Made by a program: the position numbers and the translations under genes. From Spizellomyces punctatus DAOM BR117 (taxonomy: Eukaryota), in NCBI GenBank assembly GCA_000182565.2, contig KQ257459.1: a stretch of DNA of 64,000 bases. One strand, 5' to 3'. Below the pieces are notes generated by a model that did no database searches, was not told the origin of the DNA, and saw only the letters and a list, made by a program, of their open reading frames with translations. Of this stretch, positions 53,399 to 55,384 are shown one piece after another (positions within the stretch are counted from its first letter, which is position 1; each line of letters opens with the position of its first letter).

Positions 53399-55384
53399 AT
53401 GTCCTCCCGACGTAGCACACGTAAAAGAAAGTGCAATACAGCGGATATAAGGTATCGTCCTTTTGCCGTCAGCACTTATAGTCGGCATTGCCAAATCCCT
53501 TCACTAATTATACTCGACCGGCGCGATATATTTCAAACTGTGCTCATAATATTAGCTCGTCATGGTATGTTGGCTACGCGGAAGACGGAGAGTCAGTGGA
53601 AGCAATTATGCAGAAATTCCAAGAACTTGAGAGGATGCAACAGGAGTTGGCCGCGCAAGGCTCCTCCACTCCTGTAAGCGCCCCAACTCCAGAAGCATCA
53701 TCTGTCTTTGCCAGCGGAACGAATTCGGATGCAGATGCGGACATGGCGCGTGCCATTGCTTTGCAAGAGGTTTGTTTCTTTGTCGCAACGGCTCTGATCC
53801 ACGTTTTACCCATACCGAAGATTATCTTATAGGGACAGGAGGAATCGACATTTACTCAGGCGCAGCTTGAAGAACTGTTCAAACGAACCTCGTGCTTCAC
53901 GGTCAAACAGGCAACGTTAGATCTCGACCCTGACGATTTGGACGAGCTGGAGCTTTGGCGCCTGGAGATGGAGGGTGGAGATGACGATGATTGGGAAGAA
54001 AAGTGAGAGCAGATAGATGGCGTATTTGATCTCATGATCGCGTTAAGCTGATCCTAACCTGCTCAATCTACCGCAGTGATAATCACATTCTGGATGATGA
54101 TATGTGGGATGATGAGTTCGGACCTGCACGATCCGGCAGACGAGGGGAAAGGATCCCGCGTGCTCGATCTGGCGGACTCCGATCGAAGCTGGATCGTGAG
54201 AGTCTTATCGCCAAGTATAAGGTCATGCAGATTCAGATGCAGGACAGAAATGGAAATTTCTTCGTCATGAAGAAGAGAGTGTGGTGTGTACTGCTACTAC
54301 AATTCTTCATACCCCACATAGTTGATTGTATTTTTGCCGTCAGTACTGTTGATCCGAGGTTGCCGACCTACATTCGCATCCCTCCGGTTCCGATACCACG
54401 ATCATGGGTCAAATTAATTACGTCATATGCTCCTCCAAGCGGTGACATTGAAGGGTGCAGGTAGATATAGCTAATTGGCGATCTCCTTGTCGTCGTGCTC
54501 TCCTGATAGCTTCACAGATATTTTGAGGACGACATCCTTCACTTCAATATGAAGCCCTTGGGCAATCGGTTTCAGGTTGTCCATATGAATCCCCCATTCC
54601 TCATGCCTGATGAAGAACCCACGTCCGGAAAGATCTCCATGAAGCAATTTGTGCGTAGGGGTAGACATATCTCCATCACGTGTGGTGATACTCACCATCT
54701 TTGCGGCTGATATAGGAGAAATTAGACATCCCGGCCATAATACCATTTGGATTTCTTTTCATCTGGGCTGAAAAGGAATTGACGCCCGACATTCTTCGGG
54801 CTACTCAATCATGGGGTTTCCGCTATGTCGAAAATTTCGCCTGGATCAAGAGAGAGAGGAGCAACAAGATTGCCCGACAATCCTCACGATATTTTAATAA
54901 AAGTAAGACGACTTGTTTGATATTGAGAAAGGAGCGCAAGGTATGACGACCGGGCGAGATCGCGAGAGTTATCAACGTGGAGCAGCTTCTTATACTTCTG
55001 CTTTAACTATCAGGAAGGCGACGTTGAACTTCGACATCAAAGAAGTCCTGATTGCGAGTTTGACTTTATAAAACCAAAGCTACCTGGTATGCGTCAGATA
55101 CCTACATCAAAGTCATCAAATTGAAATCTTAATGCAGATTGATTTCAGAGGATCTGACTGAGGAGAAGCCCAACTTCGTCTACGACGTGATCGAAACCCT
55201 TTTGCCACAGGCGGTTTATGGTCCGGCAAACCAGAACGGTGACAGAATGTTGGATCTGTAAGTCACTGTTGGATATGTATGCAAATCCATGTAGACGGCA
55301 TTAACATCCGTTGCCTAATGCAGTTGGGCCAAACCAGGACGAAGGCGAAAGGGATGGACCATGGTGGTACAAAAGAGGTCATAG
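53399..55384 (+). CDS. MT-A70 family adenine methyltransferase-like protein, AMT6/7 (MTA9) type, about 10 exons
   Basis: Spliced C-terminal half: FQVVHMNPPF...GFLFIWAEKE...WGFRYVENFAWIK...FNKSKTTCLILRK...ELRHQRSPDC...EKPNFVYDVIETLLP...MLDLWAKPGRRRKGWT. Confidence 0.85.

Follow-up and report, generated by a model that had tools for sequence, protein, structure and literature searches.

With a probability that we put at about 0.8, SPPG_05756 is the single AMT6/7 (MTA9)-type protein of the chytrid Spizellomyces punctatus, and most likely serves the AMT1 orthologue as a partner without catalytic activity. The gene was recovered from the window, a 64,000-nucleotide stretch of S. punctatus DNA. The gene, its family and the ApT 6mA of this species are already known, and the finding therefore merely re-derives the existing annotation from raw sequence.

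The gene model was obtained by splicing the window through an exact match to the database protein P0001. The resulting gene occupies positions 53399-55384 on the + strand and consists of 10 exons that encode 453 aa, and the spliced product is 100% identical to NCBI SPPG_05756 (Table 1). All nine introns are of the GT..AG type, with lengths of 57-104 nt. As originally predicted, the MT-A70 domain is split over short exons and is missing from the open reading frame track: exons 6-10 are pieces of 20-75 codons, and no long open reading frame therefore reveals this part of the protein. All of the motifs and coordinates originally given were confirmed in the sequence. The description of the gene as hidden is thus accurate for the open reading frame track and for nothing else, since the locus is already annotated. 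Support for the exons from RNA was thin. The joint 55257>55324 was supported by four reads in RNA run X7 (of which approximately 6/100 was read) and by one contig in run X1. The X7 profile is very shallow and 3'-weighted, with a depth below 1 over most of the gene, and the evidence for introns 1-8 consequently comes from the database model and from colinearity with orthologues. Reads in minus orientation were present at positions 53300-53600. An Rfam search of positions 50500-57000 returned nothing.

Table 1. Exons of SPPG_05756 and the intron observed in RNA data (positions in the window; aa, residues of the spliced protein).
Feature	Position	Strand	Content	Basis
Exon 1	53399..53451	+	Start codon and basic N-terminus with NLS-like RRSTRKRK (53408-53431)	Exact spliced match to P0001
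Exon 2	53556..53769	+	YVGY-ED-ES-E-IM-KF-EL module, then variable linker ending in UIM-like DADMARAIALQE (53734-53769)	
Exon 3	53833..54002	+	Conserved QLEELFKRTS-F-V module and beginning of D/E-rich tract	
Exon 4	54077..54283	+	Acidic DDxW tract, basic stretch and predicted beta-hairpin (aa 193-215)	
Exon 5	54344..54460	+	Conserved DP-LPTY-RIP--P-P-SW module, ahead of the MT-A70 core	
Exon 6	54518..54650	+	First MT-A70 strands, motif IV NPPF (54588-54599, aa 278-281)	
Exon 7	54716..54940	+	MT-A70 core, GFLFIW (54749-54766), WGFRYVEN (54812-54835)	Pfam MT-A70
Exon 8	55014..55086	+	ELRHQR (55026-55043, aa 378-383), AMT6/7 'Multiple Interaction Loop'	
Exon 9	55149..55257	+	YDVIETLLP (55181-55207; ETLLP aa 413-417), counterpart of AMT7 'Hydrophobic Loop'	
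Intron 9	55258..55323	+	GT..AG; sole intron seen spliced in RNA data	Joint 55257>55324
Exon 10	55324..55384	+	Final strand with R-x-GW (aa 442-445); stop codon	

The MT-A70 identity of SPPG_05756 is far above chance. The whole protein matched the Pfam MT-A70 domain PF05063 over aa 272-446 with an E-value of 5.6e-11 and 43.1 bits (cut-off 23.9), exon 7 by itself matched the same domain with an E-value of 1.3e-6, and orthologues were retrieved with E-values down to 4e-206. Within the MT-A70 proteins, sequence comparison assigns SPPG_05756 to the AMT6/7 (MTA9) type. In phmmer searches against solved structures, the best match was Tetrahymena thermophila AMT6 (MTA9-B; 92.9 bits, E-value 1.6e-25), followed by AMT7 (MTA9; ~75 bits, E-value 2.5e-20), AMT1/MTA1 (~52 bits), METTL3 (40.5 bits) and METTL14 (33 bits), whereas no chain named METTL4 was returned at E-values up to 1. 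AMT6 and AMT7 thus lead every other solved MT-A70 protein by 23-60 bits. The AlphaFold2 model of SPPG_05756 has a mean pLDDT of 79.3, and most of its core (aa 250-453) exceeds 90. When this model was compared with the PDB by Foldseek, the best six matches were MTA9-B/MTA9 chains (E-values 6e-17 to 6e-16, ~250 aligned columns).

The Foldseek scores alone are compatible with membership in another MT-A70 clade (METTL14, METTL4 or AMT2/5) unrelated to AMT1, because they lie near one another: METTL3 (1.5e-15) and MTA1 (3e-15) follow within ~1.5 orders of magnitude of MTA9. We regard such a placement as extremely unlikely given the phmmer lead of AMT6 and AMT7, the presence in SPPG_05756 of the ELRHQR and ETLLP loops that occur only in AMT6/7, and the published census, in which exactly one of five S. 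punctatus MT-A70 genes is of the AMT6/7 type and SPPG_05756 is among the five. The two loops count among the best-conserved columns in the family; R380, H381, Q382 and R383 of ELRHQR each occur in 92% or more of its members. Within exon 7, G310, F313, W315, K318, Y335, E337 and W341 are almost invariant. The predicted AMT6/7 assignment is borne out by the phmmer and Foldseek rankings and by the two loops, and has already been published (PMC12695648).

The best sequence and fold matches of SPPG_05756, Tetrahymena AMT7 and AMT6 (PDB 7yi8, 8xyl, 9o6k and 9u92), are non-catalytic subunits of the AMT1/MTA1c complex. Like SPPG_05756, they combine the MT-A70 core with the two loops ELRHQR and ETLLP, a C-terminal R-x-GW strand and a long N-terminal region, parts of which are disordered and parts acidic. 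In contrast, motif IV is eroded in the ciliate proteins (NALW, NIKW) and reads NPPF in SPPG_05756, and a large internal insertion occurs in the ciliate proteins but not in SPPG_05756, which explains why the phmmer match to these proteins falls into two stretches. Orthologues of the same family were found in the Mucorales, where Rhizopus microsporus P0187 and Mucor lusitanicus P0221 are 54% and 45% identical to SPPG_05756 over aa 215-453 and carry the ELRHQR/EIRHQR and ETLLP loops; motif IV is DPPF in the Rhizopus protein and DPPL in the Mucor protein, as opposed to NPPF in SPPG_05756. Judging by the species names, these two are probably the published Mta9 proteins. These fungi carry symmetric, Mta1-dependent ApT 6mA, and the Mta1-Mta9-P1 interaction of the fungal MTA1c has been reported from yeast two-hybrid work (review PMC13297926). 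METTL14 offers a further parallel. This degenerate MT-A70 paralogue, whose motif IV (EPPL) keeps the two prolines as SPPG_05756 does, is the inactive partner of the DPPW enzyme METTL3 and helps to hold the nucleic acid, the same kind of role as that proposed for SPPG_05756. However, METTL14 belongs to another clade (33 bits vs 93 for AMT6), its substrate is RNA instead of DNA, and it has neither the ELRHQR nor the ETLLP loop.

The original prediction took NPPF as a sign that SPPG_05756 retains catalysis or SAM binding, a reading that the distribution of motif IV does not support. NPPF fits the [DNSH]PP[YFW] signature and aligns with DPPW of Tetrahymena AMT1/MTA1 in comparisons of exon 6 with solved structures; the AMT1 alignments, made with exon 6 and with an N-terminal-half fragment of the orthologue P0115, cover the motif IV half only. 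DPPW itself, the motif of catalytic eukaryotic MT-A70 proteins, is replaced in SPPG_05756; according to PMC12485025, MTA1, METTL3 and METTL4 have exclusively DPPW. Among 80 additional proteins from a fungus-biased homologue search, DPPL accounted for 56, DPPF for nine, DPPI for two and NPPF for one. DPPL is the motif of the sister taxon of S. punctatus, and NPPF evolved independently in one Rhizophlyctis rosea isolate. N and F have therefore arisen twice, on both occasions beside sisters with DPPL. Both the first position (D/N) and the fourth (L/F) switch between sister taxa. On these comparisons, NPPF is a minor fungal variant of motif IV.

A chytrid AMT1-AMT6/7 dimer with two working pockets, in which SPPG_05756 binds SAM or forms a second active site, is very unlikely in our assessment. 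The observations in its favour come from the motif and from one residue upstream of it. NPPF occupies the motif IV position with a canonical pattern; the two prolines are invariant in 100/100 representatives with a canonical motif or DPP[LI]; of 137 family representatives in which no residue of the motif is missing, 52 are canonical, 24 of them with DPPW; the Acanthamoeba family member is nearest to AMT7/MTA9, not AMT1; and bacterial 6mA enzymes are described as functioning with NPP[YFW]. In addition, D259 may be an adenine-binding Asp. The D259-I260 pair lies 19 residues upstream of NPPF, and we infer that it is the counterpart of MTA1 D182/V183, which contact the SAM adenine; D is the commonest residue of this column (39-53%). 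Set against these points are the instability of motif positions 1 and 4 and the prevalence in fungi of a non-aromatic L as the fourth residue. The mutation D209N abolishes the activity of Tetrahymena MTA1c (PMC12485025), Tetrahymena MTA9 is without visible SAM and mutation of its motif had no effect, and the literature treats fungal Mta9 as inactive. The putative SAM contacts in the C-terminal loops may also speak against a second site. In MTA1 these are R357, N360, N370 and E371 of Loop1 and Loop2. In the AlphaFold2 model of SPPG_05756, the last two strands are followed by the loops KPGRRRKG (aa 437-444) and KRS (aa 451-453), and aa 437-441 and 450-453 should match Loop1 and Loop2 by strand order, not by alignment. 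The corresponding columns are variable in every subgroup, DPPW-bearing members included, the top residue reaching a frequency of at most 0.42. A non-catalytic scaffold is the most likely role of SPPG_05756 because fungi mostly have DPPL or DPPF, because sister taxa differ in D/N and L/F and because D209N inactivates MTA1c.

In the long N-terminal half of SPPG_05756, a basic tip is accompanied by acidic disordered linkers and by three or four conserved modules, each of them short. The predicted basic N-terminus and D/E-rich tract are real features, conserved as composition among orthologues, most of which have a basic N-terminal cluster, and the modules are conserved in fungal and other orthologues. 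The exon 2 module spans aa 22-43 and overlaps a predicted helix (aa 32-53), and P228 and W236 of the exon 5 module are almost invariant. No match to a PIP box pattern was found in the protein, and an ESM Atlas look-up with aa 1-250 gave no usable match.

A further claim was that the UIM-like stretch DADMARAIALQE could be a ubiquitin-interacting motif tying a 6mA writer to ubiquitinated chromatin. The stretch is short, amphipathic, flanked by acidic residues and provided with a central Ala, aa 80-86 are modelled as a short helix, and a similar stretch occurs in Phlyctochytrium arcticum. The UIM consensus combines a central Ala with a conserved Ser. A relaxed UIM pattern matches MARAIALQ, whereas the strict pattern has no match in SPPG_05756 because Gln stands at the position of the conserved Ser, and Pfam returned no UIM at E-values up to 10. 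The stretch lies in a low-confidence region (block means of pLDDT ~46-59) at which most family members have gaps. P. arcticum is the only one of the nine closest orthologues to share it; in the other eight (two from Geranomyces, and those of Powellomyces, Thoreauomyces, Fimicolochytrium and Rhizophlyctis among them) it is absent or unrecognisable. These results leave the UIM claim without support and make a ubiquitin-binding function of the stretch very improbable, and to connect the basic and acidic N-terminus with ubiquitin or histones is speculative.

The genomic 6mA predicted for the source organism was confirmed by the published record. As reported in PMC12695648, ApT 6mA of S. punctatus was mapped by nanopore sequencing, with a global mApT of 2.6 and a SmATS of 4.9 in the units of the table there; the same table lists one AMT1 and one AMT6/7 for the species, and the taxon list of the MT-A70 tree includes SPPG_05756 as one of five S. 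punctatus taxa. The 6mApT fraction of SPPG_05756 itself is given as 0.026-0.028. No genetic or biochemical work on the chytrid SPPG_05756 was found in the literature searched; S. punctatus is described as transformable (Medina et al. 2020).

Combined with what papers report on the roles of the loops and on the presence of AMT1, these data are consistent with a scaffold model. The MT-A70 domain of SPPG_05756 would pair with that of AMT1, and its two loops, ELRHQR and ETLLP, would hold both the DNA-binding loop of AMT1 and a DNA binder of the p1 type in place at the ApT site. The Multiple Interaction Loop and the Hydrophobic Loop are defined, with their contacts, in a preprint (10.1101/2025.07.08.663716). 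SAM binding and methyl transfer would fall to AMT1 alone. The N-terminal half of SPPG_05756 would most likely act in nuclear import and in recruitment or regulation, in the manner of the ciliate AMT6 (PCNA) and AMT7 (IBD2) tails. For S. punctatus, pairing with AMT1, the absence of catalytic activity and the function of the tail are inferred.

The significance of the SPPG_05756 locus as such is small, and the by-product on motif IV is more useful than the locus finding itself. Ciliate papers describe AMT6/7 as lacking the [DNSH]PP[YFW] signature, a loss that SPPG_05756, with its NPPF, does not share. Canonical motif IV is carried by proteins of Acanthamoeba castellanii, Diphylleia rotans, Nonionella stella and Vermistella antarctica, among others, and with 52/137 representatives fitting the signature, its loss is a ciliate trait rather than a clade-defining one. 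In the literature searched, we found no report that pairs MTA9/AMT7 with DPPL, DPPF or NPPF. The 'non-catalytic partner' label for AMT6/7 was drawn from ciliates, in which motif IV is eroded. Because canonical motif IV spans several supergroups and fungi keep DPP[LF], the ancestral AMT6/7 may have been active, and in some lineages, possibly including this chytrid with its NPPF and retained upstream Asp, the dimer with AMT1 might have two SAM sites serving both ApT strands; in our view, this reading is decidedly unlikely. Motif IV of AMT6/7 is not uniformly eroded, fungi having DPP[LF] and several protist lineages DPPW.

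The MT-A70 family of Pfam was matched by the translation of exon 7 alone (E 1.3e-6), and the same exon used as a protein-search query returned P0001, a database protein of 453 aa, with 100% identity. P0001 is named 'uncharacterized protein SPPG_05756 [Spizellomyces punctatus DAOM BR117]' by NCBI and MT-A70-domain-containing in UniRef. Using a splicing script that started at the ATG at 53399, permitted GT/GC..AG introns and had P0001 as its target, we recovered this protein letter for letter from ten exons separated by nine GT..AG introns of 57-104 nt each, and every motif of the original prediction was found where it had been placed. 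The description of the gene as hidden holds for the ORF track only, since SPPG_05756 is already annotated. Raw reads of RNA run X7, which carries the same species label (about 6 in 100 read), covered the gene shallowly and with a 3' weighting. The last intron, 55258-55323, was removed in four of these reads and in one contig of a second RNA data set, X1; no other splice joint reached the listing threshold in the fraction of X7 read. Contigs of two further data sets, X2 and X3, were colinear with the genome, with introns retained and zero differences, and the NPPF codons were covered by an X3 contig. At 53300-53600, X7 reads lay in the orientation opposite to those carrying the spliced intron 9, at a depth of 2.3-9.5 with the maximum within intron 1 and a thin tail to about 54400; they could stem from antisense transcription, or mark where a transcript from a minus-strand neighbour ends.

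The neighbouring genes, of E2F/DP type and a Gtr1/RagA GTPase, are unrelated to the 6mA machinery, and no Rfam family matched within 50500-57000. On the upstream side of the gene, a stretch of some 2 kb (51100-53300) holds only short or featureless ORFs, together with A-rich and G-rich runs; the one long ORF scanned there, 52521-53222 on the minus strand, had no Pfam match.

Features of SPPG_05756 and its neighbours (nucleotide positions in the window; aa, residues of the protein)
Feature	Position	Strand	Evidence
E2F/DP-type gene (winged-helix transcription factor)	49819-50841	-	E2F_TDP, E 1e-27
SPPG_05756, spliced gene	53399-55384	+	
Gtr1/RagA GTPase exon	56248-56634	-	E 2.3e-28
Module YVGY-ED-ES-E-IM-KF-EL	aa 22-43		conserved; helix 32-53 (model)
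Module QLEELFKRTS-F-V	aa 96-116		conserved
Acidic tract	about aa 128-160		composition conserved; disordered in AlphaFold2 model
DDFW	about aa 152-156		conserved
Beta-hairpin	aa 193-215		conserved; model
Module DP-LPTY-RIP--P-P-SW	aa 218-236		conserved
MT-A70, whole protein	aa 272-446		Pfam, E 5.6e-11
ELRHQR	aa 378-383		orthologue alignment
ETLLP	aa 413-417		orthologue alignment

The assignment of the protein to the AMT6/7 (MTA9) type proved right. In a search against all solved chains, the top match was Tetrahymena AMT6/MTA9-B (8xyl_B, 92.9 bits, E 1.6e-25), followed by AMT7/MTA9 (about 75 bits, E 2.5e-20) and, lower, by AMT1/MTA1 (about 52 bits), METTL3 (40.5) and METTL14 (33); no chain named METTL4 appeared among the matches at E up to 1. 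An AlphaFold2 model of P0001, built from 79 aligned orthologues, had a mean pLDDT of 79.3; most of the MT-A70 core (aa 250-453) exceeded 90, and three segments fell below 50 (aa 1-11, 59-76 and 139-182). Six MTA9-B/MTA9 chains led the Foldseek comparison with the PDB, with E from 6e-17 to 6e-16 over some 250 columns; the fold is thus consistent with the assignment yet not decisive, because METTL3 (1.5e-15) and MTA1 (3e-15) scored close behind. ELRHQR and ETLLP, both kept in SPPG_05756, rank with the most strongly conserved columns in the family, and this signature is more telling than the fold.

The predicted genomic 6mA is already in print: S. punctatus was nanopore-sequenced and picked for stage comparison owing to its 'high 6mA levels' (PMC12695648). 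Supplementary Table 1 of that study lists AMT1=1, AMT6/7=1, AMT2/5=0, METTL4=1, METTL3=1 and METTL14=1 for the species, and the source-data tree has five S. punctatus taxa, Spun_SPPG_05756 among them. Its source data give mAT 2.62, SmATS 4.90 and WmATW 0.91 for the species, and at the gene level they assign SPPG_05756 a 6mApT fraction of 0.026-0.028. Family and 6mA are published for the same gene and species; that SPPG_05756 is the one AMT6/7 of the species follows from our solved-chain search rather than from the text of PMC12695648.

In the N-terminal half, the basic tip is a possible nuclear localisation signal and recurs as a basic cluster in most orthologues. The proposed ubiquitin-interacting link to chromatin found no support. 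The UIM-like DADMARAIALQE lies in a variable linker between two conserved modules, and a similar stretch occurs only in Phlyctochytrium arcticum among nine close orthologues. Pfam UIM had no match in the whole protein at E up to 10, nor did a strict UIM pattern match SPPG_05756; the pattern fails on DADMARAIALQE because Gln stands at the position where the consensus has Ser. The ciliate subunits, too, are described as having acidic, unstructured N-terminal regions, for which regulation has been suggested as a role (PMC12485025). The N-terminal modules, encoded by exons 2-5, are kept in AMT6/7 orthologues from fungi as well as other eukaryotes, and no mention of the four motif-like modules (the hairpin aside) was found in the literature searched. 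They are candidates for partner binding. Tetrahymena AMT6 and AMT7 use tails and loops to bring their complexes to PCNA and the ET domain of IBD2 (PMC11761967), and by analogy the modules of SPPG_05756 might have a recruiting role; a pattern search detected no PIP box in the protein.

Exon 6 alone aligned NPPF opposite the DPPW of Tetrahymena MTA1, so NPPF occupies the motif IV position. We surveyed this motif in 150 family representatives at 50% identity, drawn from 862 matches at E up to 0.001 and all scoring at least 106 bits. The alignment took in 160 proteins, 137 of which had all four motif residues, the other 23 being fragments or gapped at the motif. The pattern [DNSH]PP[YFW] was fitted by 52 of the 137 (DPPW 24, DPPF 12, NPPW 7, SPPW 7, DPPY 1 and NPPF 1, the last being SPPG_05756 itself); 48 had DPP[LI] and 37 were otherwise eroded (NPGW, NAGW, NSGW, RPPF and others). 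The AMT6/7 signature is present in the DPPW-bearing members (RHQR 0.91-1.00, ETLLP 0.95-1.00). Of nine DPPW proteins looked up, four have organism names: Acanthamoeba castellanii, Vermistella antarctica, Nonionella stella and Diphylleia rotans; the Acanthamoeba protein matches AMT7/MTA9 better (70 bits) than it does AMT1 (43 bits). A second, word-based and fungus-biased search brought in 104 proteins, and the 80 that were new read DPPL 56, DPPF 9, NEAW 6, DPPI 2 and single cases of NPPF, DPQL, NPPW, NSAW, GAGW, DPPW and one gapped motif. The motif reads DPPF in Rhizopus microsporus and DPPL in Mucor lusitanicus. Rhizopus stolonifer has, beside its usual DPPF copy (P0186), a longer second AMT6/7-like protein with DPPW (P0234, 629 aa), possibly a paralogue whose role differs. 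Extra unrelated Pfam domains are annotated on the orthologues of Paraglomus occultum (P0176, gamma-glutamylcyclotransferase-like PF06094) and Smittium mucronatum (P0022, peptidyl-tRNA hydrolase PF01981), probably as merged gene models.

From a maximum-likelihood tree of 20 AMT6/7 orthologues, with four long branches and 9 of 17 inner forks unresolved, only two sister pairs were used. S. punctatus (NPPF) pairs with P. arcticum (DPPL; support 89/80), and Rhizophlyctis rosea HK097, the only other NPPF bearer, with R. rosea HDV00 (DPPL; 100/99). Motif positions 1 and 4 thus vary between closest relatives and PP is constant. The R. rosea records P0162 and P0009 (NPPF versus DPPL) differ by the same pair of changes as S. 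punctatus.

The original prediction took NPPF as possibly catalytic, an idea that found no support. MTA1 D182/V183 may have its equivalent in a D-I pair at 259-260, although correspondences to MTA1 contacts are drawn from order and spacing, not from alignment. A working pocket in SPPG_05756 is unlikely, given the drift of positions 1 and 4 among sisters and the reports that catalytic MT-A70 enzymes are 'exclusively DPPW' and that D209N kills MTA1 activity, although N is tolerated in bacterial enzymes (PMC12485025). Beyond motif IV, MTA1 contacts SAM through D182/V183, S332, R357, N360, N370 and E371; the four from R357 onward lie in the loops that follow its final two strands (PMC9852454, PMC9174199). 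The last two strands of our model fall at aa 431-436 and 445-450; all subgroups of the family alignment vary at columns 437-441 and 450-453, whereas R442, G444 and W445 are conserved. In Tetrahymena MTA9, SAM was not seen and mutation of the eroded motif had no effect (PMC9852454, PMC9174199). An inactive partner that keeps PP has a known precedent in METTL14, with EPPL (PMC7544214). We read NPPF as a drifted relic retained for the fold. No paper in the literature searched names MTA9 or AMT7 alongside DPPL, DPPF or NPPF, and 'DPPW' is absent from the main text of PMC12695648; alignments in supplementary figures may already show the motif's retention. The wide retention of AMT6/7 motif IV outside ciliates is the one point that extends beyond the literature searched.
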